Shown one piece after another: positions 15,000 through 53,150 of a stretch of 64,000 nucleotides of DNA (within the stretch, counting starts at the first letter, position 1; every line of letters begins with the position of its first letter). Below the pieces are notes generated by a model. That model had not been told where the DNA came from. It made no database searches and was given only the letters and a program-made list of their open reading frames with translations. The DNA comes from Psilocybe cubensis (Eukaryota). Position numbers and translations under genes: made by a program. The DNA lies in the NCBI GenBank assembly GCA_017499595.2, contig CM039006.1, positions 1,364,001-1,428,000 of the forward strand. Direction: 5' to 3'.

Positions 15000-15012
15000 G
15001 CATGTCGGGCTG

Positions 15013-24762: not shown

Positions 24763-25916
24763 TACACCCAGTCCCCACTTTCTTCAAAACAAGTCAATTT
24801 TCATCCAAGTCAAGTCAATTTCAAGTCAATCCACATTGATTCATTTTAATTCCAAGCTCAAGTTCAAGCCAAGCCCAAACCCAAGTCCAATTCAGTCATC
24901 AGTTCCACCCTCCATCAAGACCAAGTTTACTTCCATTCATCCGAAGTCATCTTACTTTCCATTAAGAGAGGATTTCATCCAAGACCAGTCCTCCTTTTTC
25001 TTCAACGCCTCTTCTTCCCAGCATTGAATATCCAACTTCTATCCAGACATCTAATACTCCCTACTTCCTCTCCTCCATCCAATCCGTCACCGCTCCTACT
25101 CCTTCTACACCTTCCAACCATTGCCGTTAGGAGTGTATCCAAGACATTCTTTCCCTCCGTCAACTCATCTGGAGCAATTTCATTTGAGACAGACTTAGTC
25201 TTTCATCCTCGATTCAGTCGATACTCCCGCGACATATAGCTTCATTCCAAGCATCAGAAAGATTGTCAATTTAAGGATACTTTCACCATCCCCAAGATTC
25301 AGCCCTTCAACGACGTTCCAACTCCCAGTCATCTCCTCATTTCCTCTCGAAACCTTCCCCACTCACTTCCGACCACCCCTCTAAGATTCACATTTATTGA
25401 TTTCTCATACGCATTCTACGCACCTTCTTCACGCTTTCCATATACACCCGCCATCCAATTTCACGGTTCCATCCTATTTTCGGAAGGCTTATTTACCATC
25501 GTACCCAGACGACCCGGTTATCCTCTTCTTACCATTTCACTTTCTTTACCCTTCACAATCCACACCATCCTAATCTACTTAAATCCTAGGCAGCGTCCTC
25601 CCTTAAGAAACTTAGGAGAAGGTTTTGTCCTATCCAGTCTGGACCACTCTTTCCCTGGGATTTGTGTTTGTTGGATTACATATAGTTTATAACCAATCAC
25701 AAACTTCGATCTTCAGCATGTCGGGCTGCACGGGAAAAACACGGGCCGCAAATGAACCGGACGGGTCCATCTACATTGCGTGTATTGCAAGCAGACGGAT
25801 CCGTTTTGACCTGTGTTGTGCTGTCAGACGGACCCATTTGACCCGTGTCTTCTCAGAGAGGGAGGGTTATTTATGGGGTATTGCAAATCAATGAGCACAA
25901 GGGCTCTAAAAATAAT

Positions 25917-27133: not shown

Positions 27134-27365
27134 GACACGCAAATAGATTCACCTGTGTATTGAACTTAGCAACTTTTGCACAAATTGGATCTGGTGAAGA
27201 AATCACATGACTCAGATTGTACATGTTTGTGTATGGTTTTGTTTTGCGGGACCGCTTTTTTTTAGACTTTTTTTAGACTAACTCTAACCACGATCACCAC
27301 CCCTACGTTCTACCGTGCCTCACCCATTAACGCATCTTCCCCCCCAAAAAAAAAATGCTTTCCCA

Positions 27366-30300: not shown

Positions 30301-30384
30301 AGGGCTGGACGGAAGCGAAAGGCGGAAACGACTCTGGCTGAAGCATCGCGCTCGCCCAAAAAACCCAAGGCCCCAAAAAAGTAG
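27366..30384 (+). pseudogene. Cargo gene B, copy 2
   Basis: Same as 16650-19661, with two extra Glu codons in the coiled coil (449 vs 447 aa ORF). Confidence 0.7.
29203..29648. mobile_element. Solo LTR, copy 2
   Basis: TGTCAGGG...CCCTGACA with ACAAA TSD. Confidence 0.9.
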
Positions 30385-30682
30385 TATATTTCAATTCTTT
30401 GTAACTTTTTTTTGGTCTCCTTTTTTGCCTTGTCTCATAGATTGCATTGTACAATTTTTAATATTTGGACTGTATATAGTTTTTACTCTCATGTGCTCAT
30501 CTGTTTTATATCTCTCCCAAAAAGTAGCACTTGATGATTTTTAATGAACCCGCTTTCTGTTTTGATTTTGTGTGAAAACATGTTTAAGAAACATCAAGAT
30601 AAGAATGAAAAGCATCACATTCAATAGGTATCATGAATCTACTTCAATAGCTAGGCTTTCAAAGTTTTTTTCTTTGTCTTTT

Positions 30683-33600
30683 TGTTGGAATCATAGTCGG
30701 CGAGCGACTTCATCGCTAAGTCATTATCTTTCTGTTGTAGTTATCTTATCACGTTTTTTCTAGATTATTCTACTATAGGTTCCGTAGTTACTGTAGGTAC
30801 AACCGTGTAGCTACGTCGTGAACACACACCTTTTACCACCACTGCGCACTATCCTTACAACAGGTTATGAGCCCTGAGAGGTCATAACTCAAGCTTGCGT
30901 TATCTAAATTTTGTTTTAAACTCGTTCTATTCTTATCGATCTATATCTAAACTCGCACTCGACGTCAAATGGCCAACTTGACAACCGCGGAAGTCAACAT
31001 CGGCGGATATTGCATCGACACACTGAAGGCCCACAATTGGATGCCGTGGAAGCGGCGCATGCTAGCAGTACTGGTGGACCTCGGACTGGAGAAATACATG
31101 GACGGCACGTCACTTCGACCAGGATCAGCAAAACCAAACGCACCCACGGCGGAAGAAATCGCAGCTCAGACAGCGTGGGATAAGGGAGATGCGAAAGCGC
31201 GATGCAGGATCGAACTCGCGTTAAGCGATGCGGAAATGGTACACGTCCTGGGAGCGCGCACAGCGCGCGAGATGTGGATGCAGTTGTGCACGGTGAAGGA
31301 ATCCAAGGGACGATCGGTGTTTTGGCAACACGACAAGCACTTTTCCGGGCAACCGCAGAGGAGGGATGCAACATGGCAGAGCATATCGCAAAGCTACGTC
31401 AATTTCAGGAGGAGCTGCACATCATGGGCAGCATTGTTTCGGACGAAGATTTTGTCATGATCTTGCTCACCTCGCTGCCGGAATCTTGGGAGAACTATGT
31501 GTCATCTTTCTTGGGCTCGAGTGGGAACCGACCTACTCTCACTTCGCAGGAGCTTGTTGGTGTTCTTCTTGAAGAAGCTCGTCGTCGGAAGGAGCGTGGA
31601 GGTGATGGTGCCGGAGGGACTACGCTTCAAGTTCGTGGAGGTCAAGGGTCGTCGGATGGAAAGGGTAATGGTTCGAGGGATGGCAGCAGCGGGAAGAAGT
31701 GCTATAATTGCCACAAGATGGGGCACATTTCGAAAATGCTGGGCGAAGGGCGGAGGTCGTGAAGGAAAGGGTCCGAGGGGGCGGAAGACGAAGAATAAAG
31801 GGCGGACGAATCAGGCTCGGGAGGACGTCAACACTACGCTCAACGATGAGGTTGCGTACCACACGTACTCGACGTCGAACTTCTCTCGTTACGACTGGCT
31901 TTACGATTCTGCAACCACCAGTCACGTTTGTCCCGTCCGTGAAGCCTTCATCGAGTATACGCCACTCGTTAATTCCTCCGTTTGTGGTGTTGGAAAGAGT
32001 CCAGCTATCATTGCAGGCCGCGGAACAGTCATCGTCAACTTCGATGTCGACGGGCAGACGATTACTCATCGTTTGAAAGACGTTTTACACATCCCTGAAG
32101 CCGAAAATGCTTTGATGTCGCTCGGAAGGTTTGAGAGGGATGGGAGGAGTTCGTCGTTTAAGAATGGGAAGGTTTTTTTGATGGATGCGAAGGATAAGGT
32201 TATTGGAAAAGGGTCGAAACGCGGTCAGATGTATATTCTTCACGCTCGCGCTCAGCTTAATTCAGGGGAACAGGTCAACTACGTCTCGCCTAAACTCACC
32301 TGGGATCAATGGCATCGTCGTTTTGGCCATATCTCAGTGTCGTCGTTGCAGAAACTCGTCCGGAACGATCTCGTCGTTGGTCTTTCCGTGGACGAAATGT
32401 CTATTCCATCCCCATCGTGCGAGGCGTGCATCCAAGCGAAGCAGACGCATAAACCTTTCCCTGGAGAAGCAGAAAATCGATCCACAGTTCCTAGAGAGCG
32501 AACCATGAGTGACGTATGGGGTCCTATCGGAACACGCTCGGTAAATGGATTTTATTACTACATTACGTTTATGGACGACGCAAAGCGATACAACGGTGTG
32601 GTTTTCTTGAAGGACAAGAAGGAGGCGGCGAAGGCGATTGAGAATCATGGGGAGCGAGTGAAGAGGAGGTTTGGGCAGTATCCAAGGTACATTCGCATGG
32701 ACAATGGCAAGGAACTCGTGAACGAGCGGATTAAGAAGTGGGCGGCGGAGAGAGGCATTGAAATCGAGACGACGGCGCCATATTCCCCATCTCAGAACGG
32801 CGTCGCAGAGCGCTACAATCGTACGCTGTTGGAGCTAGCACGTGCGATGATTATTGCGAAGAATTTACCTCTCTTTTTCTGGGACAAGGCGGTCAATTAT
32901 GCGAATTATTTACGCAACCGCGCGCCTACTCAAGCACTCGATGACAAGACACCATATGAAGGCTGGCACAACAAGAAACCGGATGTTTCTCACCTTCGGG
33001 AGTTCGGATGCGATGTATGGGTGTTAGACGAGACGAAGGGGCTTTTGAAGCTCAAGCCACGGTCAAAGAAGAAGGTATTCGTTGGTTTTAACAAAGGCTC
33101 AAAATCTGTGCGTTATTACGATCCCAAATCGCGCACAGTGAAGTCATCGCGAAACGTATCGTTTAACAAAAACGAAACGCCGCAGAACGTCGAAATTCCT
33201 GGATTATCGTCTGAGGGGGAGCGTAACAAATCGACAGACGTTAAATCCAGCAAAAACGAGCCAGAAACCGTCAAGAACGAACCTATTTCGTCTACAGCAT
33301 CGATTCCACAGCCCAGCATACGTTGATCAGCTCGTGAACACAATTTCATCGATTACAAGAAGGCAAACAATCCGAATGCTCGTTTACCGACTACACGATC
33401 CCAAACGACTCCAAACGCACCACAAATTGCTACAAAATCGACCGAGACCTCGAGCGCAAAGTCTACAGCAACGGAGCAAGCAAACATTGTCAAAGAACAG
33501 CTGTGGGGCGCGATTTTAGACGATTCGGAATGTGTCTTTGCCATGCGCAAATCAGACGTACCTCGGACACTTGAAGAAGCTTTGGAAAGCTGTGAGGCAG

Positions 33601-35322
33601 CTGCGTGGAAGGCAGCTATGGACGAAGAAATCGAGACGCTTTTACGGATGGGTACTTGGGAGATGATGAAGATTCCGGATGGAAGGAAACTGGTTGGATG
33701 CCGTTGGGTCTACGCAAAGAAACGGGACAAAAACGGGAACGTCATCAAGTACAAGGCCCGACTAGTCGTTCAGGGATGCTCTCAGAGACCTGGTACAGAC
33801 TACAGCGAGGACGAAACATTCGCACCAGTCATGCGATTCGACACGCTACGCTCGCTACTCGCATATTCGGCCGTACACAATCTCAAAATGCGTCAATTCG
33901 ATATAAAGGGTGCATATTTGCACGGTTACATCTCGGAGGAGATTTATATGGTCCAACCACCCGGTTATGATGATGGCACTGGTCAGGCATGCCGTCTCAT
34001 TCGTTCGCTTTACGGTCTCAAGCAGGCAGGAAACGTATGGAACCATGAACTCGATAACGCTCTCACTTCATTCGGTTTTACAAAACTCAAGAGCGATTAC
34101 TGCTGCTACATCCGTCGAGCTGAAAACAGCGATTTTACGATTTTGGTTACCTGGGTGGACGACATAATCAGTTTTTCAACAAACGACTCGCTCAACGACC
34201 AGCTGGAGCAAGAATTAGGCTCGAAATTCGACGTTAAATCAATGGGTCAGCCCTCAATAATGCTAGGATTCAAGCTCGAGCAAAAGGACCATTACATTTC
34301 GCTCTCGCAAGCACACTACATCGACAAACTCCTTGAGAAGTTTGGTTTACAAGACGCAAACCCCGTTTCGACGCCTATGGATCCGAACGTGCGATTGGAT
34401 AAGGATGAAGGTGTTCGGGAGGATGGAGACGGTCAGGGGGAGGTTAATTCGCGTTTAGGATTCAGTTATGCAACGGTCATCGGCTCGCTCATGTATCTGG
34501 CACTCGGAACTCGTCCAGACATCGCGTTTGCGGTATACAAACTCGCGCAATTCACCAGCAAGCCGAAATCGACTCATTGGACCGCTGTCAAACGTATATT
34601 TCGCTATCTGAAGGGCACGCGCAATCACAAACTCACTTACGGCGGCGATTCGCAAGTTTTGGACGTAAATCTCAATGTTTATTGCGACGCCGATTGGGCT
34701 GAAAATTATGATCGGAAATCAACTAGCGGATACGTGGTTACGATAGCAGGCGGCGCTGTGGCATGGAGCTCGAAGAAACAGAATACGGTTGCACTTTCAA
34801 CCGCTGAAGCCGAATACGTTTCCACAACACATGCGGCGAAGCAAGTCTTATGGCACCGCTCACTCTTCACGGAGCTTGGTTTCCACATTCCGTCGATGTC
34901 AACCATCTTTACCAACAATACGGCAGCCATTTCGATTGCGCATCATCCAGAATTCCATGCCCGTACGAAGCACATTGACATTGCATTTCATTTCCTACGC
35001 GACTTGGTGGAAAAGAAGATGCTCGACACGGTTTACATCAACACTTCAAACAATTTGGCGGGCATTTTCACAAAGGCTTTACCTCGCGTTGCACACGATG
35101 GTTTCACGTTGCAGTTGGGAGTTTTGGCCGACTAAGGGGGAGTGTTGGAATCATAGTCGGCGAGCGACTTCATTGCTAAGTCATTATCTTTCTGTTGTAG
35201 TTATCTTATCACGTTTTTTCTAGATTATTCTACTATAGGTTCCGTAGTTACTATAGGTACAACCTTGTAGCTACGTCGTGAACACACACCTTTTACCACC
35301 ACTGCGCACTATCCTTACAACA
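30683..35322 (+). mobile_element. Full-length Ty1/Copia LTR retrotransposon, copy 2
   Basis: LTRs 30683-30862 and 35143-35322, TSD CTTTT, PBS and PPT present. RT-RNase H is one uninterrupted 530-aa ORF (33543..35135). It shares the two gag frameshifts and the TGA after integrase with copy 1. Confidence 0.97.
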
Positions 35323-37552
35323 CTTTTACCTGCTACAACAAGCAGACTTGCTTCCTGAAGTGCTAAGGGATCCGAAGTCACATTCCTGTGGGCCCATGTT
35401 TCATCCGTATCTGGACTTGTTACTGTCTCCACGAAGGCATCACAAGTCACGTCCCTGCCGGCCCGTGTATTATCCGTGTCTTGGGTTGTTCCTATCTGAA
35501 CTCCATTTTCTTCCACTGTGTCAAGTGGATCTGAGTAGGGCTTAGTTCTTTTCCTAGGTTGAATTCTTCTAGTTGGTTTTGGCTTAACTGGGGGGGTTCA
35601 GAACTCTCTTCATTGGGTCCGTCCATTTCCGCTGTTCCGACATATGGCTTTGTTCTTTTTCTTGGCATAATCTTTCTAGCTGGCTTGGAAGGCGCCTCCT
35701 CAACCTCTGGAGTTGGGCTGGATGATGGATTGACAATTGTTGGGCTGGATCTACTTGGTAGAGAGGGTGGCTTGCTAGATCTTGAAGGTGCGTCGGTAGG
35801 AGTCTCATCCGTCTCTGGCGTGACAAATCTGGCAGTAGTGCGTGGCATCGTGGATGCCAGACTGCCCCGTCCATTATCAAACTCTGACAAATTGGATGAC
35901 TCAGAGTCGCTTGAAGATTGGGTTTGAAGTCGTATAGCTTTTTGCCTCAGACGATGTTTGGTTATGGCTATAGGAGGTGGAGGTATTGGTATCGGGTGGG
36001 CTTCTAGGCGGTCAAACAAGTTGGACGGATAGAGAGGTTCCATAATGTTGTATCTATTTCCAAAAACCTTTGAAAATTTAAAGGAGATGTCTCCTTGGGC
36101 TTGACGGTCCCTCCATAGCTTGAGAATTGTAGAAGTTTACTCCAGGCGGAGCCGGCTCAGATCCGTCACGGGGATTAAACTTGGCCAATACTCTGGATCA
36201 ATTATTTCTGCAGAACACCTTTCAAGAGCATCCCAAGGAACACTTGAACCAGGCCTGTCCTTGGCTAAAGCTGTATACATAGTTAGCAAGTTTGTTGAGG
36301 ACATAGACAAATTACACACCATAAACCTTGTTCATGTAAATTCTAATAATTGACTTTTGTGCATAAGCAACTTCTCTCCCAGTAGAACCGTAGATAGGAC
36401 TAGGTATTATTGGAAATCCATTGCTGCTGAACTTGAGTGATTTTTCATGAAACAATGCTTCTGGCAGTGCTAGATTGGACACACCCTTCTCTATTTCTGA
36501 AATGTGGATGAGATATTGAACAAACGCTTTGTGGAAAGCGTTCAACTTGGATGGAAAGAGTTGCCCAAAGGAAGGAATTCTGACATCGTCGAGTGATAGA
36601 TCGCTTGTCTGGGTTCTTCAAATGCCCACCAGTCAACATTAATATGGGCCAAATTATTCCACCGTGAATGCTTACAGCGGAACTTGTTCATGCCGTGTTT
36701 AACACTTACATTGAGTATTTGATTTTACCCTCAATATCATAATGCCCCTCAAAGGTAATGGACCTCATACCCATTCTCTGCCACTTAAGTTTTTCCATTT
36801 GTTGAAGTATTTTTCTGCCTTGCCTGGCAGCAGTCCTGCAGATGTCAGATGTCAGATTGATGGTGGAAACAAGTTCTACCAACTCACTTTGCCTTTATTG
36901 ATTTTGAAACACCTTTCTTATTCCATTCTTCAAGGATCTCCATGAACCTGTCCCACTCCTCCTGAGTCAATCTGGCCTCAACCTGCTTACGTCCTTGTTG
37001 ATAAAACTTCATCCAATCTTTACTTCCTCGAGCAGCATTCCCTGATAGAAGCGCAACCTTGGAGTCAATCTCTGCCGACTTCTCCTCACAAAATACCGTC
37101 TGAAAGGTTATACGGGAGTTCAATCCTTCCAGTTTTATACCAATTCAATTTGACGCATGGTTTCTAAACCAGTTAAATATTTGCTATTGTGATGGTTTAT
37201 GTGTGTAATAAAATTTTCAAAGAAACAACAAGCTCACATGCTTTTTCACCTTCCACTCTTTGTGTAGTTGCTTATCTTCCTTCCTAGCACGTCTAGAGTA
37301 TCTGTGATCCCATGTAGCTTGCAGCTCAGGTATGACAGTGTTCTGTATGTAGTCTGCTTTGGATGACTTTGATGTATCTTTGTAGGGCTGTACATGCTTT
37401 TTCAACACGTGCATTTCCTTTGTTGTCCAAATATTTAATTCTTCCGGCGGAAAGTCACCCTCCGCCGTCTGTCCGTTTCTGGGTCCGTTGTGGGTTGTGG
37501 CATTTGCAGTAGAAGGAAGCGGATCCGCGTCGGGGGATGCATTGGTGGGCAT
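35323..37552 (-). pseudogene. KDZ-associated cargo gene C (helical 'NWFRNH' protein, multi-exon); its last codons lie beyond the Copia at ~30659-30682
   Basis: ATG 37552 MPTNASPD..IWTTKEMHVL..EWKVKKH|intron|QIFNWFRNHA..DWMKFYQQGRK..EEWNKKG, followed by further exons and a Ser/Pro-rich tail. Removing the Copia restores ..VVAGKRQRKKL*. Several stops and frameshifts. Confidence 0.6.
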
Positions 37553-40270
37553 AATTGCAGTGATGTAACAAGTAGCTTATCAATGAGTATCTGTGTGATC
37601 TGGTCAAATCTCACGTCATACGGAGATAAAATAAGCTTCCGATCATACTAAATAAATGATGTGATGTCATATTTTCCCCAATCAGGTAATCCCGCTTCAT
37701 CGTCAGCCACGATGATCAAAGCATGCTGGTAGCTGTCACATACATTGACCTCATGATTTTGCAATAGTTCTCTCTGCACTCAATCAATAAACATGAAATT
37801 TTGTAAACATTTAGCGCTTTATATAAAGATAATTTTACAAGGTTTTAAATTCTTGTCAGATGGCTGTAAAGATACAGAAACACAAAATTCAAATTCACGT
37901 CTTCTCACCCAAAACTTGTGAAACCCAAAATGGCAGTCATTTCAGAGACCATGAGAGGTATTCAAATGCATAATTTTTTTCAAAAAATATAATGATCCCA
38001 GTGAGCTCATTTTGACACATTTTCTAGTATATTGAGAATATCTCCTTAAATACAAGGATTCACATTCTACAAAAAATGTCATTCGGTAGCTATTAAAAAT
38101 ATCTTTCATATAATATATGCCGGAGGAATGAGGGGCCAGCCAGTGAAAAGATATGTATTTCAAAAACACTCCAAGGTGTGGTTCTGAAAGGGTCGTTCTG
38201 CATCATATTGTACATTTATGATGGGATCACGTCCATTTTGTGCATCTCTGAATCAAGTTTTGTTCATAGCATTTCACTCACTCATTCAAATATGCTGCAA
38301 AATAGGTCATATGAAAGCTATTTTTCCCTTCTTTATAACGGCATAATTGAGGGAAATTTATCTACAGAAATAAACATGTTATACTACATTTAGATCTGCG
38401 CTCACAGGCTGTCAGACTCTTTGTTTCCAACATCCATGGGCTTCAAGAAAGTACCTGATAGGGGATCGGATGAGGAGTTTCCCAATGTTCGGGAGGCCTC
38501 CTGGTCTAGTGGGGCCAAGAAACAAAAGAGAGGGCGGCCGAGGATCCACAAACTTCCTGCAGAATCATCATCAACAAACCTCCCTCAAACAACGACTTAC
38601 TCTTTCCAAAACCATGAACACAACATTCTGGAAGAAGAAATACCTCATTATCCGGGAGATCTAACTGATCAGCAGGTACTTGATAACCTGAGACAGCTAG
38701 ATGACGACAGAACGGGAGGAAAGGTATGTTTTAACATGTTTTCAGTAGAATGATCAGGATGACTTTACCTATCCAGTCTCAAAATGATTACCTGAGGGAA
38801 TGGCTCCCGAAACGAGAGGTGTATCTTGGAACAATGATTGGAGGAGAAGCCCCGGATCCGGATCTGAATGGACGGTGTCAGCAATGTCAAGGAATGTCTG
38901 GAGTGTGGAGATGTTGCCAATGCTTTGGCTCTAGAATTTTGTGTTCTGAATGCCTGCGAAGAAACCATCAATTTACACCTTTCCACCGTGTTGAGAAGTG
39001 GACGGGTCTATATTTCCGTCCGGGAGCTCTGTGGGAAGTGGGTGTCAAGTTGTATTTGGGTCATAATGGGAAGTGGTGTCCTTATCCCACGGATCCGAGC
39101 CATCTAGGATGCGACAGCGGAAACAATTCATCCAGGAGTCATGGGCACGGTGGAAACAATTTGCCCATCTTTGAGGATGAACACGGATTGGACCTGGATC
39201 CGCTTCCTGCAAGCAATAACCAAGAATCCTTTACAGCTCAGCTTCTGGCGGACCCGGAGGTACCCCATTTGGTTGAGCTGGACAATGGAGATGATGAAGA
39301 CAATGATCTATTTGAAGAAGTCGATACAACCTATCTGGACCAACCTCGTCCAAAGGCAGCAGACAACAATGGAATTCCTTTCAAGGCAATTGTGCACACC
39401 TCCGGAGTCCATTATCTACCCGTGCAAACATGCATATGCCGGTCCGTCCGCCTTCCGTCTATCAATTTACAGTATCTAGAGATGGGATTATTTGCAGCCA
39501 GCTTTGAAAACATTCAAACTGTGTTTACAGTTGAGGTCCTTGAGGACTTTTGGATGGACAACCTCGAGTGCAAAATGTCGGCTTATCAGTATTACCAAAA
39601 GTTGCAAAGACTGACTTCGCCAGCGTTTCCAAAAAAGGTGCTGAACCGCTATTGTGAATTGAGAAGGCTTAGTAGAGAATACAGGGACCTCGTCCTGAGA
39701 CGACATTATGGAGAAGGGCATACAAGAGAAGCGGTGGTTTCTTACTATCGTCATTGCTATGATTCATCACCAGCAAGGATGGGTATTAATGTATTTGATC
39801 CGATCAATGGCAGATCTGATAGTCCGTCTCAGGAACTCGGTATGTCAACGGACCCGTCACCGGGACACGGCGGATTAGATGGTCCGCCTGCACCACAAAT
39901 GACGCGGACCAAGGATTATCCCAAAGTTGAAGATAGGAGAGGGAAGTTGGCCTTATTCTGCCCCGCCTGTCCACAGCCTGGAATAAACCTACCAGATACC
40001 TGGATTGATGATGCTGACAGGTGAGTTTTGGTTACTTGTTAAGGCTCACTGCAATTGAGAGCAAATAGCAATCTGTACATACATAGTTATGTTGCAGATG
40101 GTAATTTCAAAGCAGATCACCTCAATCAGAAAAACGAGGGAGACGATGTTTGGTTAAGCATTGGAGAAGGATACATGACTGCTCTGGGCCCATACAAGGA
40201 GCACATCAAGGAAGCAATTTCTCTTGCTCCACGTTATAAACTGGTGCGTTATCTACCATGATTTATCTTT

Positions 40271-40368
40271 CACGGCGGATGCTTACTTTCCGTGTCAAAA
40301 TCTTCCATGGCGGATGCTTCCCTTCCGTGTCAAAAAAATCTTCCACAGCGGATGGCTTATCCTCCGTG
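40271..40368. repeat. Three tandem mini-hairpin units inside a KDZ1 intron (intron 40244-40382)
   Basis: cacggcggatgcttactttccgtg, catggcggatgcttcccttccgtg and cacagcggatggcttatcctccgtg, separated by tcaaaa(aaa)tcttc spacers. Confidence 0.8.
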
Positions 40369-41353
40369 TAAAAAAATATCAGGAACAAACATGTCATAAC
40401 TACCACGCCCAGAAAGCTGAAAACAGAGTCAGCCCGGGTAAGAGAGTACGTGGAATTGGGGCACACGCTTGTGCTAGGCACGGATGCTTCTGTCCATCCA
40501 GCGTTGTTGATTTTGACAAAGGCAAAAAGCAAATGCACATGGATTGGTCTTTGACTCAGGCCAGGGAAACTACCAACACACAGGGAATCACAAAACATTT
40601 GGAAATCTACAATATAAACTGTCAATATTGCGTTAACTTGGCAAGGCGTCTCTCTGAGTCCACAAAAATGCATTGGCCACCTTCTGTTAAAATGATTTTT
40701 GCAATTGGTTTATTTCACGTCCACGGGCACAAGACGGAATGTCTTTACAACTACGCATCCACCTATGTCCCGGGTGTGGGAATCATTGATGGAGAAATCC
40801 TGGAGCCGTTGTGGTCTGTGTTAAATGACACATCCCGGAGTACACGTTCCGCTACCACTGCCCATCAAGCAGAGGTTTTGGACGACCACATGTGGGATTC
40901 CAACTGGAAGAAGAACATTAATATGGCTGCAACAATTGCTGCAAAGTTCAAACGGGCACGGGAACAGTCCGGAATCACAGACCAATTTTATAGGGGTATC
41001 ACGGATCAACAAGATTCCGGGCTCATCAACACTTGGGAAGATAAAATTTCAAAAGCAGAAGCGGACCAAGAACAAGGTGTGGCCGACACTGTTGGCAAGG
41101 TAATGGCAAGCAAAGTGAAAACGGCTGCTGGATGCCAAGAAATTGAATTGCATCTTTCAAATATGGAACTTACATCTAATGGTGCTACTGGAAAGGCAGC
41201 ATGGATATCATCCGGCTTAAAACTGGAGCAAGTGCAGTACCATTATTTCAATTGCATCCTACAGAATTTAACATGTTTTTAGATTGGAGCTCAGGGACCA
41301 TGTCAGAAAGCTCGGAAAGTGTCCTTCTACCGCGCAGAAACTTGACTTGGTCA

Positions 41354-41896
41354 CACGGCGGGCAAAAGTGCTGACTAGTCAGCCTGGGAGTTGGTCTGAC
41401 CAGTCACCTGACCAGTGTGCTGACTAGTCACCTGACTAGTCATGTAGCTGTCACGCATTTATTGTCACGCTGCTAAGTTTCTGTAATTCCGCTCATTGAT
41501 TGTAGAACAGAGGATTTCTTTTCTATGCCCCAGACTTACACAGGGCGGGTGTCGTGTATCTTCTAAACAACGTCGGGTGACCGTGCAAAAGTACTCTAAA
41601 AACATGATTAGTTATCCATTTGTTTGAATAATGACCGAATTTCAACCAAACACAAGAAATATCCAATTCCAAGTCATTCATTGCTTTTCCTCAGTGACAG
41701 TGCTTTGGAAGACAATGGTTTATTCCCATTTAATCTTATGTTACTGAACTTATTTACCAATACTAACCAGCGTGACAACATTTGTGTGACCTCTCCTGAC
41801 TGGTCAGTTGATTCGTCACGGAACGCGTCACGATATGGTCACGTGACTGGTCAGACCAACTCCCAGGCTGACTAGTCAGCACTTTTGCCCGCCGTA
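41354..41896. mobile_element. Non-autonomous TIR element (MITE, 543 bp) with CACGG termini and 3-bp TSD, CACTA/CMC-like
   Basis: About 60-bp TIR cacggcgggcaaaagtgctgactagtcagcctgggagttggtctgaccagtcac.., mirrored at 41836-41896. TSD TCA at 41351-41353 and 41897-41899. Excision restores the KDZ frame LDLVNKHRSMQTRVEAF. Confidence 0.9.
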
Positions 41897-42949
41897 TCAA
41901 TAAACATCGCTCCATGCAGACCCGCGTTGAAGCCTTCTGTTGATCCGCTATGACCTTCATGGGCAAAGATGTCTTGGAGGATATTCAAGGGGACATCACT
42001 CCCATACTTGACTATGAAGTCAGTGACAACAACAATCCTGATCTTGGAAATGTCAACATTACCCGCGCGGATCCGGAACAACAGCCGCTTCCGTTTCCCT
42101 CCGCCGTCAAACAAGATTTCTTTGACGGCCTTGACGCGGGAACAAACCTCATTTTAAAGGGGCTTCACAAACTTGAACTTCAAATAAGACATGGCCACGC
42201 AGAGGACTGTCTGGAAGCTGTCCGGTCAGCCTTGATCCAGCTTTCTTGGCAGTATAAATATCAGGTTTGGACCGCCGACTCCATCTATATGGGGACTTGT
42301 GCTTGGGATGGTGTCAAGCTTTTGAATGCTTCCTGGAAATTGCACCGGCAACTCTACAACACAAACCGTCAGAAGATGATCTATTTATCTGCTGGCGTGT
42401 GAGACGAGGATAATATTCGGAAACAATATCCCATTCTGCAAGTCCATGATTGCAAGTATAGTAATGCTGTGTCGGATCCAAACATTTGCAGAGGAAGCTC
42501 GGACTGTCTAAGTTGGATTTGGAGATCCCGTCAGGGACTGGACAATGATAATCAATTATATGTTAATGAGTGTGAGTATTGCTATTTGTATTTCTAATTT
42601 TTTTCTCAAGGGTTTCTTAGTCTTCAGGCTAAACTGGCTTCGCGCGCAAGCTCAGAGGAATAGATGGCAAGAAGGAGCTGACCTTGACAAAAAAGAAAAT
42701 GGAATGGACTGTCAGATTTTATGTGTATATGGCAAAGACATGGCGTGCATGGCATGATTTTGTTCCTAACAGGTTAGTTGGTTACAGAGCAAATGCTCAA
42801 AAGCAGATTGCCATGTGGAATGATCTGGGGCGGGCCGCAGATAAGGTCTTCTGTCAAATTAACCCGGAGTATCCGTCCGTGTAGAGATTTATAATTACAG
42901 ATTAACCAGTTCTTTGAACATTCTTGTTGTATCCCATCTCGTTGAATTC

Positions 42950-43619
42950 ATGCACTTACCGCGGCTTTTTAAACCTCCTGTCGAGGACAAACATCATCTC
43001 CTTACCTATGATGAGCGACATGCTCTGGCCAAAGTTCATGTCCATATTTGTGGTGCACGGATCCGTGCCGGATACCATTTGTTCATTGCAAACGGAGACT
43101 CTGTTTCCTCCGTGCATTGCCAAAAATGGATGTATTTGCTTGACCTGGAGGTGGTAAGACAGTAATTTTGAACCATTATATCTTGCATTGAGAACTGGTC
43201 GATAGGCTATACTGCTGAGAGTACTCAGATACTGCTATGTCAATGGATTCCAAGTTGATATTCCATTTTTTATATCAGAAATTCTCAATCAGAGCGTACA
43301 TACCATTTTGAACCAAACTCCCCACCATTGAGCTGTTCTATTTGAATCTCTAAATCAAAGCTGGTCAGCATGGGAAGATGATGAAATAATCAGACCAAGA
43401 GCTGGGGATATTGGTGGAAGGACGGATTTGCTGAAGGCAATGAGTGGCAAGTTGCCTTTATTACCGTTGAATTGCAAGCAAGAGAATTTTGGAACAAGGT
43501 ATGTTTTTTTATTGCTGTGGATTATATCTGATTTGCGTGCTTCCCACCAGGTGGTTCTGCCTGAATACCAACAAGAGGTACTCCGGCTAAATAATCAGAC
43601 TCTGCTACCAGATCATTAG
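42950..43619 (+). pseudogene. Possible small cargo gene D downstream of KDZ1 (unknown function)
   Basis: ATG 42950 MHLPRLFKPPVEDKHHLLTYDERHALAKVHVHICGARIRAGY.. followed by GTAAG..TAG intron-like breaks. No recognisable domain. Confidence 0.3.
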
Positions 43620-43970
43620 ACCTCTTGTAGCTTATAAAGTAGTAGGAAATTCTAAATCAATCATTTACTGTAACCCACCATACTATGCTACCAGATCATC
43701 AGGGCTCTTGTAGCTTATAGAACAGTAGGTAATTCTAGATCAATCATTTACTGTAACCCACCATACTGTGCTACCAGATCATCAGGGCTCTTGTAGCCTA
43801 TAGAACAGTAGGTAATTTTAGATCAATTATTTATTGTAGCCTACAGAACAGTAGGACATTATGTTTCAATCACCTACTGTAGCCTACCATACCTTGCTAC
43901 CAGATCTTTAGGGTTCTTGTAACTTATGGAACAGTAGGGAATAATCAATCAATTATTCACTGTAGCTTAC
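43603..43970. repeat. ~83-bp tandem repeat, about 4.5 units
   Basis: tgctaccagatcatcagggctcttgtagcttatagaacagtaggtaattctagatcaatcatttactgtaacccaccatac recurs at 43603, 43686, 43769 and 43895, plus a partial unit. Confidence 0.9.
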
Positions 43971-45178
43971 CGCATCCCCGAACCGTGAACTTATTGGATT
44001 TACGTTCCGATTCGGCCAATACCAAAATGTTGCTAATATAATATAGCTCAGGCCAACAACACCACTATACTTAAAATATAATACAACCAAATATTGACAA
44101 AATCAATTGTCAAAATCAAAATCTTCCAATCGATCATCCTCCTCGCCGTCGTCTCCTTCTCCATCGTAGCCCTCGCCATCATACTCATCGTCAGAATCAC
44201 TTCCTTCACTCAGCGGATCTCCCGGACTTTCCTGCTCTACAATCTCGATCTCGTCAGTAACGCTCGCGGCCGCCTGTACCCCATTTCTCCTCATTTTTGG
44301 TTTTGGCAGGTTTGGGAACATTGACACCCACTTGGGCTCAACGCCAAATTCTTGCATGAGTGGAATCCAATCGATGGCACATCATCTGGCCATCTGACAA
44401 AGGATGTAAGCTTGCTTATTTGCGTAAGCTTCCAGTCCTTTTTGAATCGTCCTTTCGGCTGATGACCTCAGGCATCGCTGTTCTTCCCACCATGTCGCCT
44501 TCTATTCCCACCAAACCAAGACCCTTCTCATCTCTTCCTCAACCAGAAGCGCCTCTTCCCTCCATCTCAACAAACGTGCCCTCGACTTTGCCCACTCGAC
44601 GCGCATGTCCGTATTGAACTTGTCATCCTCTTCCTTACCACTGGTACCACTCCATTGGACACACCAAATCCAGGATTTGACGTATTTCTTGCTAGTGGAT
44701 CTGTTGTCAAGGGGGTCCTTTCCAGGGCCTCTGATATCCTCCTATCACAAATCTTGCAAGTCTTTTCTCCACAATCCGTTGGGATCAAGCACAACGAGGG
44801 CCACACGTGCTTTTCGGTACTTGTGGGCCGCACGCTCAATCTTATAGTAGAGTCGATTGTAAACGGTGAGCATTTGTGTATTAGGTCAATTTCCAGTACC
44901 ATTCACATTGATCTTCTTGTACTTCCACAGCTTGGTAACGTTGCGGCGGCTTCTGCGAATTTCGGAAAGTGCGTCGTAGGCGGCTGCCTCACAGAGGCTC
45001 GCTTCCATGTTGCAAATATGTACCATCTCGGACCCTGAAGCACAAATGTGGGCAGGGAGAGCTGAAGGCATGAATAAAGGTGTGTTTTCCACTGTTTCAA
45101 TTCTCGGCATGCCATTCTCATCTGCTGTTGTGCTCGTAGCTATTAGATTTGCTACATGCGGGGTATATATCAGTTGTA

Positions 45179-46783
45179 CAGTGGTCAAAAAAAACGTTCG
45201 AGTATTGGTCACGTATGAAAAGATTAATTTATAACTTTGAAATTAAAAATGTTAAAAATATGAGATTATTCACAGGTATACTAGAGGGTATTAGCTAAAG
45301 GATGGCACACTGATCATGTGATTTTTCCAAGAATTGACCAAACAGGAGCATATACAGTTTGCTAAGTCATTCGAACAGTTTTTTTGCTAAACACTTGAGT
45401 ATCAATAAATCATATCTACTAGTACTTTGTATGTCCACCTTTGGCCTTAATCACTGCTGCACACCTTCTAGGCATGCTAACAATCAAATTCTGCACCACT
45501 TCCTTGGGTATTCCATTCTATTCCTTCTCAACCCTCTCCCAAAGTTCATGGATACCCTTTGGTGGGACTTCATGTTCATTAAGTCTTTTTTTGAGGTATT
45601 CCCATAGATGTTCAATGGGGTTGAGATCTGGAGATTGTGCAGGCCATATGAGGACCCTAAAATTCTGCTCTTCAAACCATTTCTTGGCCAATTTTGAGGT
45701 GTGCTTGGGGTCATTGTCTTGCTGTAAGTGGATATCTTCTACCTGTTGACCATACCACTCCAAGGATTTTAGGAGCTCATCACCTAGGATCTCAGTGTAT
45801 AACTGAGCATTCATCTTCTCATCAATTCTAGTGGCAAATCCAATTCCTTCCCATCCCATACAATCCCACATCATCAAGTTTCCTCCTCCAAACTTCACAG
45901 TTTGCTTGATCCTCCTGGGGTCCTGTCTGTTTTCCTTGTCTATCCACACCTGATCTCTGCCATCTGAACCCAATCTGTTGATTTTGGTCTCATCTGACCA
46001 CCAGACTCTTGCTCAGTCATCCACAGTCTACTCCAAGTGCCTTTCTGCAAACTCCAATCTAGCCCTCCTATGCTTTTTTGATAACAAAGGCTTCTTTTGT
46101 TTTGCTACTGAGACCATGCCAGTTGATTTGAGTGCATTCCTAACTGTTTGAGGACTGATATTCTGGCCATTAATAGTAGCCAGAGACTTGGCAGCTTGCA
46201 CAGCATTCTTGATTTGTCCAGTTCGAATTCCACGCTTGGTATAGGTGATATTGGCACCAGTCAGCTTCTTTGGGCGTCCTCCATGGGAAAACACTGCCTC
46301 AGGACAGTAGTCTTGGCGAATCTTGGTGATAGAACCAGCACTAGCTCCAGTCTGGGCCTTGATAGAGGCATAGGAGTGACCAGAAGTAAGAAGAGAGACA
46401 ATAGTAGCAATGGTTGCTTTAGAGAGGGGTTTCATGCTTGATTGGGGGGATAAAGAGGTTGGTTGTAGCTATTATATACCTATTCAACATGTAGTCACAT
46501 GATTTTATTGATAGTTGTTTGGTATATCAACAAAGTCATGTAATAATACATAGTTTATAGCATTTAAATTACTAGCAAAAAAACTGTTCGAATGACTTAG
46601 CAAATTGTGTATGCTGCTGTTTGGTCAATTCTTGGACAAATCACATGATCAGTGTGTCATCCTTTAGCTAACACCATATAGTATATCTGTGAATAATCTC
46701 ATATTTTTAACATTTTTAATTTCAAAGTTATAAATTAATCTTTTCATACGTGACCAATACTCGAACAGTTTTTTTGCCCACTG
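45179..46783 (-). mobile_element. Tc1/mariner DNA transposon (DD34E) with ~210-bp TIRs
   Basis: TA|CAGTGG...CCACTG|TA. TIRs at ~45179-45389 and ~46573-46783. Removal restores the KDZ2 frame WRQVQLIYTPHV. Confidence 0.95.
45419..46435 (-). pseudogene. Tc1-family transposase with premature stops
   Basis: HTH region with GRPKKLT, WSDETKIN, QQDNDPKH and SPDLNPIEHLW (34 residues between D and E), C-terminus SMPRRCAAVIKAKGGHTKY*. Three in-frame stops fall at positions where Trp is expected. Confidence 0.92.
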
Positions 46784-49700
46784 TACCTGTCTCCAGTTGT
46801 TGATTTGTCAAAGGAGCGCCACTCATTTCTCATGAATATCACCCTGCTTTTTTGTTGTTTTGACCGTTTGGCTTGCAATCTCCATAGTAAGTTTGTACCT
46901 AACAAGTTGATTTATTACAATGTATTAGGAAATGCATAGAAATGATGTAACTCAACTGGTGGTCCTCTAACTCCAGACCAGTAACAAGGAAGCCCGTCAT
47001 TGTGACTTTGTGGGCTGGGAGTTTCCCTGTGGCTGCCATCACAGCTTCCTCTTTTTGCAACTCATGTCGTGTGTCTTGAAGCGTAATGGCTAAGACAGAA
47101 TCAATAAACAATACAAAAAGTAAGTTTAAAACACATACTGTTTGTTGATTCCTTGTACGGGTTTGGTTTTTTGGGATTTTCCTCCCATTGCTTGATTTTG
47201 GCTGTCCACTGTTTGATGACATCAACAGTGAAAGTTGAAGAGAATTGTTTAAACGATTCCTTGTATTTCTTTTGCATCTTATGAGCCTTCTTGAATTTCC
47301 TCGCAAGGCTAGTCCCTAGAGTACAAGTTGAGAACCTCGACTACAGACAGATAGTAAAAACTCACTAAACCCAATAAGCTTGCGAAAGTTCCAGCCATTC
47401 CAATGGTCATTAAGGGTGTCTCGGCGAGCAGACGGCGCCATTTCACGTACACTTCCTGCAAGTGGGTTTGTATGAGACCAATTTGTCTCCACTTCCTTGC
47501 CGCACGTCTTCCCAACACCCTTTGTATAGCCAACATTGTAATTATTGCAACAATCGGGGCCATGGCCATTGATGTGCCAACTGGGAATGGCGGTCTGGAT
47601 TTGTGTTCCTTTGGCAATTCTCATTTTTTCTGGGAATTCAATGATCCGTTTGAAAAGGTTCTTTGTCCACTGGCAGGCAATGTCATATGTAATGAAGATA
47701 CAGGCAAGTGTAACTCCCATTACTGCAGAAAGGACAATAAAGTCCATATTACAATATCTGGATTCATAATATCAGTACCCGGAGTATCTCAAAGCTGCAC
47801 ATCATCAAGCATATCACCTACCACTCACCCTTCTGCAAGTCACCAACCCCATTCTTGTGAACTAAAGCATGTCTGGAGCACAAAACCAAACCAACCCCAC
47901 TGACAGCGTATCCGGGGGTATTACGAATGCTCGCCCTGACGATTGCATCATTCTCTAAGCGACATGTATTCATCTGATCATATAATGTATGTGTAAAGCA
48001 ACAAATATATCAACAAACCATGAACAGGCTTACCTCGGGTTGCTCAACATAGTTACCAATGTGCTCACAATAAGCAGCCTGGTCGACAAATACTCCGGTT
48101 CCAGGCACCAAGTCTACATCACCCAATTTCCGCTCCTTGCCTTTGAGTTTGAAATTGGCATCGACCGCAATGAATAAAGTATATAGAAACCTGGAGAAAC
48201 AGCATCTCAGACATCCTTGTTTGATCAGAACGTAGATGAAAACATACAGAAGAGGCCCAGAATCTTGCCAATTATCAGGCAAATTGCGCCCCGGATGTGG
48301 GCAAGCCGGACATTCTACAATCAAACCTCCAGGCTCGGTGCCATCAATTCCGGAAGGGTCATGGCCTCAACCTGCGCGCTTCCACAACATCATGTTTCTC
48401 CACAGGCGAAAAGCTCGATGCATCTCTGGAAAGCAGTACTTGATATTTATAAATAGGTTAGTAGACCATCATTTTCAGCAGCTCGCTGTTGAAACTCACA
48501 ATTGTTGGTTTAAGTCCTGCATTATCTGTCTTCCTTAACAGGGTGTTGTAGAAGTCATACAGATTTCCCTTTCCCTGCAATGTATGTTCATGAAATGTGT
48601 CAAGGATGTTAAATGTAAAGGCGGTATGAGGATTAGCAGTGGTGGCCGGAAACCATGGCATACGCAAAAGTTGGGTGAAACAATCAGGCGGATGATCAAC
48701 TTTACATCCACAGTAATCTAAATTTACAGTGTGCGCACCTGAGATATCTATAACAAGAAAACCACAAGGTCCAGGTTTTGGGCAAGGACAAACACGTCCA
48801 TCATGGCCTAGCTGAACGCGTAGTCTAAGTTTTGACAGCAAAGTGCGCTCAAAAAAATTTCCGTTCCATTGCTGGCCATGATGAATGAATTAGGTCGAGA
48901 AATTTTGTAAGAAATTGACCCCTACCTCGACATAATGCAGTGGCAGATCAGCATGATTTGATAACAAGCAGCCTTGGCACATTGGGGCAGTGCCATGCCC
49001 ACAATCCGTGCACTTGAAAATGGTGGCTGTTATCCCACAACCACAGCATTTTTTGTCATTAAATGATCCTAGGCTATCGTGACAAAGAATCTCATCGAGT
49101 GTGTGGTCTCAAAAGTTGAGCCACTTCATCAATTTTGACTAGAGGATAACGAGTAAGTACTGATATTCAAAAACTCTTGGATCATGCCAAACAGACACAC
49201 CTTCGCAGTATTATCACGCTTCCGTTTTGTCCCCTTAGTACTAGGTTCTGCCACTGCTGTGGCTGAGCCCATCATCCCATTATCATCCATAGCAGCCTCG
49301 ACACTAGCACTGCTACAGCCAGCCTCAACATTGGCACTGCTGCAGCCAGCCTTAGGATCACCGACTTCGGATGGACTGGTGTTGCATATAATAACCGGTT
49401 CTTGGAAGTGACAAGTATGGGCCCGAGTGACTGTTGCAATGTATAACCTTGTGGCCTTGGTGTTGTTATCGAGCAGCGGAGCATTAGCCTTTTGATGAGA
49501 CGGATGCAGGGCAGGCAGTCGACGGCTCTTCTTAGATGGACGCAGGTCCACTTTGTGACTTGAGGTATGCAATGCATCATCAGAGGGGGGCATTGTACAA
49601 TGTGCGAGTGAGTAAGAGCAAAAATATTTATTACAGTGTGTGTCACCCGCTGAGATTGAAGGCAAAATACATGTTACCGTATGATTGCAATGAAATTGCT

Positions 49701-50069
49701 TGGTATCAGTGATGCTGTTTGGGCGCCTAAAAATAACCTCATGGTTATCTTATCATACCAACAATGAATTTTTGCGCATCAATGAGTTTTGAGTTTTTTC
49801 ACATTCTGTCAAAGAGTTTTACTTTGAAAGATGAGTGGTGGGTACACATCTGTGTTAATCTGGAGCTCTTTGAAATTCCGTAAGTTTCACCGTCGAGTTT
49901 ACATTTGACGTGGTCATCTTTTGGTTCACAGGGTGCTATTCTTCTACTTCCAATCTACTTTGATGTAAAGCCATCTGTTATAAATGAATTCAGTGCCATT
50001 ACAAGATTATGATAACATGGTATATGTCTGTGTTTACTGGGAGTTTTGTGAGACTTTTGATCTACCGTT

Positions 50070-50401
50070 GAGTTCACATTTACTGTGAATTTGGTCTAGC
50101 ACAGGATGTCTGAGTTCTTCGACATTCAAGTTGAGGAGTAGCTATCCGAGTAAACCAGGAATTCAGCAATGGTTCGCCATTCCCTCAGTTCTACAGTCAT
50201 TGGGATTCAAATTTAATACAAACGCTGCTTTAGATTTCTCATCTAATGTTGAGTTCACATTTAATGTGAACTTGGTCAGGCACAGGATGCAGTTCTTTGA
50301 CATTCAAGTTGACGAGCACCTATCCGAGTTAACCAGAAATTCAGCAATGGCTCTCCATTCTCTCAGTTATACAGTTATGGAGATTCAAATTCAATACGAA
50401 C
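50070..50401. repeat. Diverged ~181-bp direct repeat (2 units, partial third near 49895) between KDZ2 and cargo gene E
   Basis: gagttcacattt..gtgaa..ttggtc..cacaggatg..gacattcaagttga..ctatccgagt.aaccag.aattcagcaatgg begins at 50070 and again at 50251. Confidence 0.75.
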
Positions 50402-50996
50402 ATTACTTTGGTTCACGGGATAGAAGTCACTTATAGTAGTACAATAACATGATGTGCGTTGAATAATATGACCATATAACAGTATCCACTGTGAATTTGT
50501 TGCGCAACCTGGGAAGCTTTCTGCACCAATAGTTACGGGTCATTGACTCGGATTCCAATTGTAAAACTATGTTTGGCTGGATTTGTCCTACAAAACTCAA
50601 TGCAACTCGACCAAGCACGTTGGCATTAGAAACTTATTTAGTCAGATGTTCTCAATGACACTCGGCCTACTTACGCTTACTGACTAGGTATTTGGTTACA
50701 TCAAGACTACAAACTTCTGTACTACACAAGCCTCTACACAAGTCTCCCTCACCCCAAGGTTGACAAGGAATTTGGGTAGCAGGAATGAAGCGCCCCTGGT
50801 GACTTTCGAGTTTTTTTTTTGCGAATTTTGGGTAGGGTCAAGCAGCCTCCACCTTTTTATAGTCTTCCTTGTCTTGTTGCTTTTCTGTATCAACACAACA
50901 TTCTAGACAGCAAACCGGGAAGTAGATTGGACCTGCAATATCTACTACATGCACTGTACAACAAAATGTATAACTATGTTTGTAGGTAAACTACAA

Positions 50997-52111
50997 TTAC
51001 TTTGCCTGACCTTTACTACCACGTGCTAGTATATTTTCAGCAAACTCACGAGGCCCAAAGATAGTGTCATCATCATAAGGTTCTCTATGAACGCGAACAA
51101 GACTGAGGGTGCGGCTTCTAAAATAGTCCTCGGCAGCCTCATCATAATTAGAAAACCCTTTCCACGAACACTTATTTTCAATGCCTTCAATCAGCGAGCT
51201 AGCAAGATTCCTAAAAGAACCATCAATACAATGTCTACCTTTGAATAAAGAGCCATTGCTTACCAACTGGAATAGAAGCCAACACGCCGTCTAACCCGGA
51301 CAGTATAGTGAGGAACATTAAGTTTGGTAGACACGGGGGCCCACTCTAGGAGAGTCTGAAGGGATGGTGTAGAGGACATAGCAGTGAATGGAGTGCGTAA
51401 GATCTGAGCATCATAACAAAGGGTTGACGAAGACTGACTAGGCTGGGTAGAAGACAATGGGGTATATGACAGGGCCTTGACGTGCACCGACTTCTTGGGA
51501 GTCTGCGGAGTAAGGGATGTGGAGATGGGAAAGAGACTGTAGCTCGGGGGTTGACCAGAGGGAGGTGGAGACTTGAACGGAGATCCAAGCTGGAGATGAG
51601 GTTTGGAGCACTGAGCTTTGCCTTTGCCCGATGCTGAAGGGCAGGGTGTACTTTGAGCAGCCTGAATGTATGCCGAGTGGTTGTTACAAACAGGGGTAGA
51701 GGGGACACTTGACAAAGAACAATATTCCAAAGCAGGTGATGAGCTGGCAGTCACGGAATTGTTGTTGTTGTCGTCATACTCGTACTTTGCCTCTTCAATT
51801 TGCTAGCAAACCTGAGAGTAGTATTTGTGAAGCCTAGAGAGAACCTCCATACTCCCCCTGACTTGAAGTTCTGCTAAAGTAAGGGAGGGGTATACGTGGC
51901 GCAGGACATCTGGAACAGTGAAGCTTTCATCAAAGACCCGTTCGTACTTCAAACGCGCGGTGCGCAGCTCTTCCTCGGCAAGAGCAATATCACCTTCCTC
52001 CTGCAAAAAGATGGTTTCTAAACTCGAGACAGCCTGAGAGGATGGCTTTCTGCGCATCTGCTTTAGAGACAGGAAAAATGAGAATGGCCTCACCCGTAAC
52101 ATCAGACACAA
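50997..52111 (-). pseudogene. KDZ2 cargo gene E: helical N-terminus, Ser/Pro-rich linker, C-terminal RNase H1 N-terminal (hybrid-binding / Cauli_VI-like) domain
   Basis: ORFs 51803..52111 and 51260..51754 are in the same frame across one TAG. The intron 51211-51263 gives HYTVRVRRRVGFYSSWNLASSLIEGIENKCSWKGFSNYDEAAEDYF. The start is uncertain. Confidence 0.65.
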
Positions 52112-52407
52112 TACTTACTATTGCGTGTAAACTTGAGTTGACAAACAATGGTTTGTGGTTATCATAGGTGTAAGCTTTGGGGCAGTCAAGTGGGGAGGGT
52201 GAAGTGGCTTACTGGGTGAGTCAGAGGAAAAAGGACGATGGAAGAAAGGAAAAAAGACGTGTGCAGTGCGGCGTCAGGGTTTTTAACAAAATTGAGAAAA
52301 CCATCTGACTCTGCAAAACAAATAGAATTGGTAAGTACGGTAAGTACCCTGCCACGTTTTTTGGAACATTATACAACATCTTTATATACCACGTAGCTCG
52401 CTCAACA

Positions 52408-53150
52408 ATGCCTCGTAAAAGCTGGACATCAAATGACCAGGCAGCCTGGCTCAATGGGCGCTTCACTGACTTTTGACAAGCCAAAATTAACGGCAAACAG
52501 AAGGAATTTTACAAAGAGACCTACCTTGAATGGCAAAAACTCTGGCCCAACCGCGTGCCCACCGAGCAAGAGATTGCAAATTCTGGGTCCAAGGAACAAG
52601 CTATTGTGGACATATATGTTGCTCAGGAAGAGGTCAGTTGACATATCTTCTTTTCTTTAGTGGGGGTATTTACCTCGTCTGCCAGAAACTAAAGAATTGG
52701 TTCCGCAACCACAAGCGACCAAAATTGGCAGAAAAATCAGACAAGAAAGGGACATCAGCGGCTACATCTTCCGTCCTCAAGCTGAAGAAGAAGCGCATGA
52801 GTCAAGCATGGCAGGCATATTCCGATTTGACATACAAGACATAGTAGAAGTCCATAGTGGACAAGGAATGGCAAAACTATGTCAAAGACTGGAAGGAGCG
52901 TAACCCCGGCACCGAGGTTGACACCTCCATGTTCGCTTTCAGGAACAAATTCATGCAAGAAAAGTACAAGGAGCAGTCCCAGGAGGTCAAGGACCAAGTG
53001 GATCAGCATCGCAGAAAGGCTTTCGAAGAAGCACAGGAAGATGACAATGATATATTTCAAATGTTAGTATCCTCATCTCTTAGACAGCAATGCATGCACT
53101 CACAGATACAACAGAAACATTGAAAAATTGCCGCGAACAATGGCAGAGTT
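52408..53150 (+). pseudogene. KDZ2 cargo gene F ('NWFRNH' helical protein), truncated by a LINE insertion
   Basis: MPRKSWTSNDQAAWLNGRF..EFYKETYLEWQKLWP..QEE|intron|KLKNWFRNHKRP..QAWQAYSDLTY..FRNKFMQEKYKEQSQEVKDQV..|intron 53063-53105|YNRNIEKLPRTM. Contains premature stops. Confidence 0.65.

Follow-up and report, generated by a model that had tools for sequence, protein, structure and literature searches.

KDZ transposons are abundant in mushroom-forming fungi; to our knowledge, the mechanism by which they transpose has been little studied. In the Harbinger/PIF transposons, a Myb/SANT partner serves as a second, separately encoded DNA-binding protein that works with the transposase. A divergent HMG-domain accessory gene of KDZ transposons was reportedly described by Iyer et al. 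in 2014. KDZ elements are mobile in Cryptococcus (10.1101/2024.08.15.608186), and TET+ Kyakuja elements have 7-bp target duplications and CA..TG ends (PMC12730594). Here we analyze a stretch of 64,000 nucleotides from Psilocybe cubensis (assembly GCA_017499595.2, contig CM039006.1, positions 1,364,001 to 1,428,000 of the forward strand; hereafter the window), in which two KDZ elements are each accompanied by a gene encoding the hexapeptide NWFRNH: gene C beside element 1 and gene F beside element 2.

Sequence comparisons support the assignment of C and F to one gene family. We give roughly even odds to the view that both are degraded copies of an accessory gene that forms a standing part of agaricomycete CxC2-type KDZ transposons and would encode a dimeric helper that binds and bends the transposon ends and loads the transposase. 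From the homology, the linkage, the intact copies in a recently mobile element and the predicted folds, we infer every step of the following mechanism: the protein would dimerise via a hairpin module, its WFxN helix and a GTF2I-like domain would read sequences in the long terminal repeats of the element, an HMG box would bend the DNA, and the ends of the element would be brought together and the transposase loaded, by analogy with the Myb/SANT partner of Harbinger.

The two genes are laid out as follows (window positions):

37238..37552, minus strand: gene C exon 1, from the ATG at 37552 to ...KVKKH; contains the WT motif and the opening helices of the homeodomain-like domain plus a long insert (basis: 27 genome matches, model helices)
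37184..37237, minus strand: gene C intron 1, predicted, phase 0, GT..AG, 54 nt; same splice in annotated protein P0004 (C type)
36888..37183, minus strand: gene C exon 2, starting QIFNWFRNH; encodes the NWFRNH helix and an HMG-like box, with one in-frame stop in the window copy
36836..36887, minus strand: gene C intron 2, predicted, phase 2, in the register of F intron 2; read by hand
36710..36835, minus strand: gene C exon 3, helix-G-beta-hairpin resembling the MADS/NRF1 dimerisation module (SRF Z 4.8, 68 residues, 2.8 A); ends in a phase-2 intron
35323..36709, minus strand: rest of gene C, comprising a GTF2I-repeat-like / NRF1-DBD-like domain with the motif VPW..YWP..DPS and an S/P-rich tail; degraded in the window copy
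52408..52632, plus strand: gene F exon 1, from the ATG at 52408 to ...AQEE; one in-frame stop
52633..52685, plus strand: gene F intron 1, predicted, phase 0, 53 nt; same splice in annotated protein P0002
52686..53062, plus strand: gene F exon 2, starting KLKNWFRNH; encodes the NWFRNH helix and an HMG-like box, contains two TAG stops and is followed by a phase-2 intron
53115..53150, plus strand: start of gene F exon 3 (NIEKLPRT..), with a possible alternative acceptor 9 nt upstream; then lost in a LINE (long interspersed nuclear element)-like element

The initial annotation had claimed that C and F share a phase-0 intron placed three residues before NWFRNH. The coordinates of the predicted introns bear this out, three residues preceding NWFRNH in the second exon of both genes, as do the pattern statistics: a splice acceptor followed by the motif occurs twice in the window against 0.17 matches expected, a count of 2 being reached in 0 of 100 shuffles. 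Across the six frames of the window, a NWFRNH motif of this kind is seen only in C and F. P0003, the database gene model for the C copy in the window, omits the part containing the first intron, unlike P0004 and P0002. Four public contig runs compared with the window showed no joint at the introns, a result that bears neither on expression nor on splicing. The observation of the gene pair was correct, while the decay of both copies had gone unnoticed. The stop in exon 2 and a Copia long terminal repeat (LTR) within the final codons break the C copy; F carries three in-frame stops and is truncated upstream of any C-terminal domain, the LINE-like element having entered after ~53150. Word-based homologue searches gave nearest annotated proteins labelled Psilocybe cubensis, plus one Joint Genome Institute (JGI) protein. 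Pfam scans of the C and F exons by themselves yielded no match, nor did an Rfam search.

The relationship between C and F extends well beyond the hexapeptide. Searching with an intact C-type protein by phmmer returned 299 clusters at E <= 0.001, and a C-family profile was built from the query and 77 of the 150 clusters listed, picked mainly for long coverage (78 members). In hhalign, this profile matched a four-row profile made of F and a third (tandem) group of genes, described below, over 187 columns (94.1%, E 1.2e-7); for exon 2 alone, with F as first row, the match covered 80 columns (E 7.5e-5). Two of the top 3 Atlas clusters of C and F are in common. The predicted introns, read by hand, point the same way: the second, of phase 2, keeps one register across C, F and 8 of 8 other loci read, and the third is common to C, L002 (the closest relative of F), L026, L074 and one metagenome contig, but not the third group. 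All three introns are also present in one metagenome contig. Scanning metagenomes with P0010 gave five contigs of 1.5-2.9 kb, too short to show linkage, and a scan with the F-side alignment gave no match.

Each gene lies beside a transposase gene with CxC2 and KDZ domains (Pfam):

38437..42884, plus strand: KDZ1 transposase gene (CxC2 + KDZ), in head-to-head orientation to C, the two starts ~0.9 kb apart
44100..49600, minus strand: KDZ2 transposase gene (CxC2 + KDZ), broken; ends approximate

C and F both point away from their own transposase, and the KDZ cores are 30% identical over 120 amino acids, in agreement with the two diverged KDZ elements and the gene orientation initially described. 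The KDZ1 domains are clear (CxC2 E 2e-20, KDZ E 1.5e-34), and CxC and KDZ were the only domains found by Pfam in the transposase pieces scanned.

KDZ elements and the family are closely linked throughout this genome. A genome-wide pattern search had 39 matches (27 C-type, F, 8 of the third group and 3 unlinked; control 0), with a KDZ core within 10 kb of 36 of them. Exon 1 of C itself has 27 matches, 23 at 94-100% and 4 at 44-47%. In a comparison made by hand, a head-to-head KDZ core lies 2.5-2.9 kb from 26 of the 27 C-type genes, and for the 27th a KDZ core is at 9.2 kb. The 8 genes of the tandem group follow a KDZ core at 5.5-6.5 kb downstream, in the same orientation. The sole F relative in the genome (L002; 48% in exon 2) is head-to-head with a KDZ2-like gene, the same layout as F. 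Counting L002 and a diverged C-type gene (L074) with the 27 C-type, F and 8 third-group genes, all 38 identified family genes have a KDZ core within 10 kb (30 head-to-head, 8 tandem); most of the 38 are copies, representing some six to nine independent families in one genome. No single-copy, KDZ-unlinked host version was seen among the matches examined. Divergent orientation holds for C, F and the head-to-head majority, but it is not general and we reject it as a rule because of the 8 tandem genes.

Several matches were set aside as probable chance: C1:1842039, C1:2161599 and C2:306136, on the basis of the matched string and distance only; a looser match in L067, antisense to a long unrelated open reading frame (ORF); and another in L079/L104, inside a KDZ core. 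L067, just upstream of the window, also contains a 991-residue ORF of tandem helical repeats (3562-6537, minus strand), presumably resembling TPR/CHAT-type fungal proteins. The tandem group (C4:1317700, C7:277330, C9:2627589, C9:3005122 and copies; P0005-P0007) has a conserved tryptophan-rich C-terminal domain (..WW..QP.WR..KGGPNGL..) in place of the GTF2I-like domain, with no Pfam match and no GTF2I match.

The structure model of an intact C-type protein (residues 36-426; predicted local distance difference test score 94.6, predicted template modelling score 0.69) shows four predicted modules: a homeodomain-like helical domain, an HMG box, a MADS/NRF1-like helix-hairpin and a GTF2I-repeat-like domain. 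Residue numbers are those of the model. Since the same alignments underlie the sequence and structure lines of evidence, these are not wholly independent. The family would share a core of ~230 residues, comprising the homeodomain-like domain ending in the WFxN helix, the HMG-like box and the MADS/NRF1-like helix-beta-hairpin, to which the C type would add the GTF2I-repeat-like domain. The predicted folds agree with the earlier view of a family built of DNA-binding-type folds, in which the MADS/NRF1-like and GTF2I-like modules had been missed.

NWFRNH closes model helix 59-79, and its W and N are kept in the family consensus. The homeodomain reading is favoured by this WFxN in the last helix; it is weakened by position 53, a conserved arginine in homeodomains, which is A in C, K in F and G in the tandem group, and by unrelated bundles that score as high or higher. 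For a domain-only model of a sister-family protein (P0009), homeodomains made up 13 of the top 50 rows (Z 4.4-5.0, 49-72 residues), with unrelated bundles reaching 5.7, and residues 1-87 gave a weak profile match to HMBOX1 (E 0.07). The Myb/SANT, Nrf1_DNA-bind and Homeodomain Pfam families were not among the best 25 of 44 families. The charged helical segment noted after NWFRNH in the initial annotation is present and corresponds to the HMG-like box in Pfam, PDB sequence and structure searches. Residues 93-161 matched HMG boxes with Z 4.5-5.4, the best at a root-mean-square deviation (rmsd) of 2.4-2.8 A; the top PDB sequence match was Abf2 (E 0.029). In Pfam, HMG_box_2 was matched by 8 of 78 family members (best E 2.7e-5) and HMG_box by 3 of 8 (best E 0.009), below curated cut-offs, as is expected of a divergent box.

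The MADS/NRF1-like module consists of a helix and two strands in the model (H164-190, E195-201, E207-213). Residues 162-248 matched the SRF MADS box (Z 4.8) and MEF2A (Z 4.4), and residues 163-369 matched NRF1 in the same domain order (Z 4.7-5.1, large rmsd), with NRF1 matches as a whole spanning Z 4.5-5.1. The best-supported new point is the GTF2I-like domain. GTF2I repeats took ranks 1-2 of 48,161 chains for residues 261-391 (Z 7.3 and 7.1, 87-94 residues aligned, rmsd 3.8-4.2), the next unrelated row having a Z of 5.4. In a second structure search, ranks 1-10 were all I-repeat entries (ten), and in Foldseek GTF2I repeats filled 9 of the first 14 ranks, none at E <= 0.001. Profile matches to GTF2I were obtained in PDB by hmmsearch (E 0.0026 and 0.0033) and in Pfam (best E 0.013, 6 of 78 members, below cut-off).

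Intact copies of the family lie inside a recently mobile element, of which the window holds an incomplete copy:

13220..43599, no strand assigned: window copy of element 1 (TET+ Kyakuja-type); C-side terminal repeat from near 13220, homology ends at 43599, TET/JBP end missing

Other copies delimit element 1 to 15.7 kb, with C between the terminal repeats. These are inverted and ~319 bp long (93-99%), those of a sister family being ~255 bp. The ends are of the CA..TG kind. Both exact end motifs were present in 5 of the 7 copies fetched, and 7-bp target duplications in 5 of those 5; in the sister family, 4 of 4 copies had the duplications. A TET/JBP gene (Tet_JBP E 9.5e-19) is present in a full copy of element 1. 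Placed by its described features, element 1 fits TET+ Kyakuja, terminal repeats excepted, as portrayed in PMC12730594. Comparing window positions 35300-43600 with three public DNA contig sets, the dominant differences were A>G (92-97 places per run) and T>C (94-96), a transition-rich pattern that is consistent with methylation-driven decay of the window copy.

Several observations weigh against a role of C and F as KDZ end-binding helpers. The present evidence fits end-binding and gene regulation alike. Direct BLASTP similarity between C and F is weak (E 0.016, around the hexapeptide), and small profiles (3 vs 5 rows) align over 17 columns, the motif. F is one of the four rows of the profile giving 94% and a minority row in both F-side profiles, its grouping with the third group being our choice. 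Every structure-search Z is below 8, a level that the tool calls common, and Foldseek returned no match at E <= 0.001 for the C-type model and nothing at all for the N-terminal model. The gene may also be absent from many KDZ loci: the strict pattern, which is insensitive and misses known members such as L002, found a partner beside 1 of the 34 upstream KDZ stretches and 4 of the 20 downstream ones, the 4 having been pre-chosen for the pattern. Finally, one 3' fragment of the C type is without a listed KDZ match nearby.

The main rival explanation is that the protein acts as an anti-silencing or transcription factor specific to its own element, binding that element and recruiting its TET/JBP dioxygenase or activating a promoter shared with the transposase gene, with no part in the cutting complex. 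This would account for the TET/JBP gene of element 1 and for the transitions by which the window copy mainly differs from public contigs, as methylation decay would give; moreover, each module resembles a transcription-factor domain, the tail is of low complexity, and an element-borne TET has been proposed to counter silencing (PMC12730594). The distance of the tandem group from its transposase, with which it would have no promoter in common, argues otherwise, and we consider such a role somewhat unlikely. A second explanation, which we hold to be improbable, is that the protein acts on the insertion site, reading target DNA or chromatin and so steering insertion, and does not hold the ends of the element. 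Bent or modified DNA could be read by HMG-like and homeodomain-like folds, but the nine 7-bp target duplications have no obvious common motif by eye. Even less credible, and largely refuted, is the idea that C and F have no common origin or are host genes simply carried along, sharing the hexapeptide and intron by coincidence: the weak direct similarity and the differences between groups in orientation and C-terminal halves would allow it, but the second and third introns in common, the 187-column profile match, the Atlas clusters in common and the lack of an unlinked single-copy host gene among the matches examined oppose it.

If C and F encode an end-binding helper with the modelled domains, binding to the 319-bp ends, dimerisation, and service to the transposase vs TET all become testable, the many near-identical intact copies in this genome providing test material. 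At least 299 unannotated protein clusters would gain a domain annotation, and the GTF2I-like domain can be tested as an origin of the TFII-I family's I-repeat. We tentatively raise the possibility, which we think rather less than evenly balanced, that the KDZ partner represents a reservoir of transcription-factor modules carried by transposons, with a true I-repeat homologue as C-terminal domain and a hairpin-plus-domain pair homologous to the NRF1 module; the animal domains would then share an ancestor with it, and may have been domesticated from KDZ-type helpers.

The two elements carry further insertions:

30683..35322, plus strand: Copia-type LTR retrotransposon with 180-nt LTRs of 98% similarity, interrupting the last codons of C; not present in the other copies fetched
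41355..41895, no strand assigned: small non-autonomous element inside KDZ1, 60-nt inverted ends; absent from other copies and public contigs
45176..46786, minus strand: Tc1/mariner element inside KDZ2, 214-nt inverted ends

On the C side of element 1 (window ~26450-30400) are a 793-residue ORF encoding a charged coiled coil with a CxxC..C..CxxC..C motif resembling a zinc cluster and, also on that side, an ORF of 12-residue proline-rich repeats. Directly behind the transposase is another gene, with a 393-residue ORF and upstream exons (L036 2163-3341, minus strand; remnant in the window at ~42870-43600), for which Pfam gave no match. A full copy also contains an internal inverted repeat of ~124 bp (87%) between the TET gene and the next gene (L036 2027-2295). 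Window positions 14047-24662 and 24763-35408 form a 10.6-kb direct duplication of 99.6% identity across 100 N, probably an assembly artefact. Unlike those of element 1, the ends of element 2 were not found. Four tandem-like copies of an 83-126-nt unit (43542-43971) start where element 1 homology stops (43599); this array may mark the junction of the two elements. ORF remnants at 51000-52111 (minus strand), between KDZ2 and F, had no match in Pfam and are possibly another cargo gene of element 2.

How does the family compare with known systems? The HMG-like box after NWFRNH makes it likely that it is the divergent HMG partner mentioned above, so that the partner itself is probably known. The proposal of a conserved second KDZ component receives support from the family and its KDZ linkage in this genome, and neither outcome named beforehand as refuting it (no significant profile similarity of C and F outside the hexapeptide, or homologues mostly unlinked to KDZ) was observed; the component is very probably not newly found. 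The two resemble each other in being separate genes, with an HMG-like box, inside a KDZ element that also carries TET/JBP; the published gene is not known to come with other modules, whereas here three further modules accompany the HMG box. The literature searched, most subscription papers being outside its reach, yielded no description of this four-module architecture or of a fungal transposon with a GTF2I-like domain, and a term search of the main text of PMC12730594 gave 0 occurrences of 'HMG' or 'homeo'. TET+ Kyakuja, as described there, shares with element 1 the 7-bp duplication, the CA..TG ends and the TET/JBP gene, as well as a terminus close to that of Kyakuja-1_LB. The two L. bicolor Kyakuja families there are described without terminal inverted repeats, in contrast to the ~319 bp of element 1 and ~255 bp of its sister (PMC12730594); their lack is a described trait of two families and not clearly a defining one.

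Harbinger/PIF offers the likeness of a second, separate DNA-binding-type protein beside the transposase; the putative KDZ partner differs in being larger and multi-module, and no Myb/SANT family was matched. The WFxN in the last helix and the long insert recall the atypical homeodomains of HMBOX1 and HNF1, which have an insert between helices 2 and 3 (structural matches at Z 4.5-5.0), but the KDZ partner is without the arginine at position 53. The I-repeat is known mainly from vertebrate TFII-I proteins. The KDZ-partner domain has in common with it (GTF2I, PF02946) the motif Y..A.G...VP[WY].....+...LP.G..+.DP/P over ~65 residues and gives it as top structural match; it is single-copy vs tandem repeats, 14-21% identical, fungal and transposon-borne. 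The likeness to NRF1 lies in the domain order over residues 163-369 and that to the SRF/MEF2 MADS domain in residues 162-248, with low Z (4.4-5.1), a large two-domain rmsd, 9-12% identity and no sequence-profile match; the NRF1 dimerisation domain is itself SRF-like (PMC10810270). Globally, the gene family of C and F is real, linked to KDZ and of a kind already known, and its architecture is, as far as checked, richer than reported.

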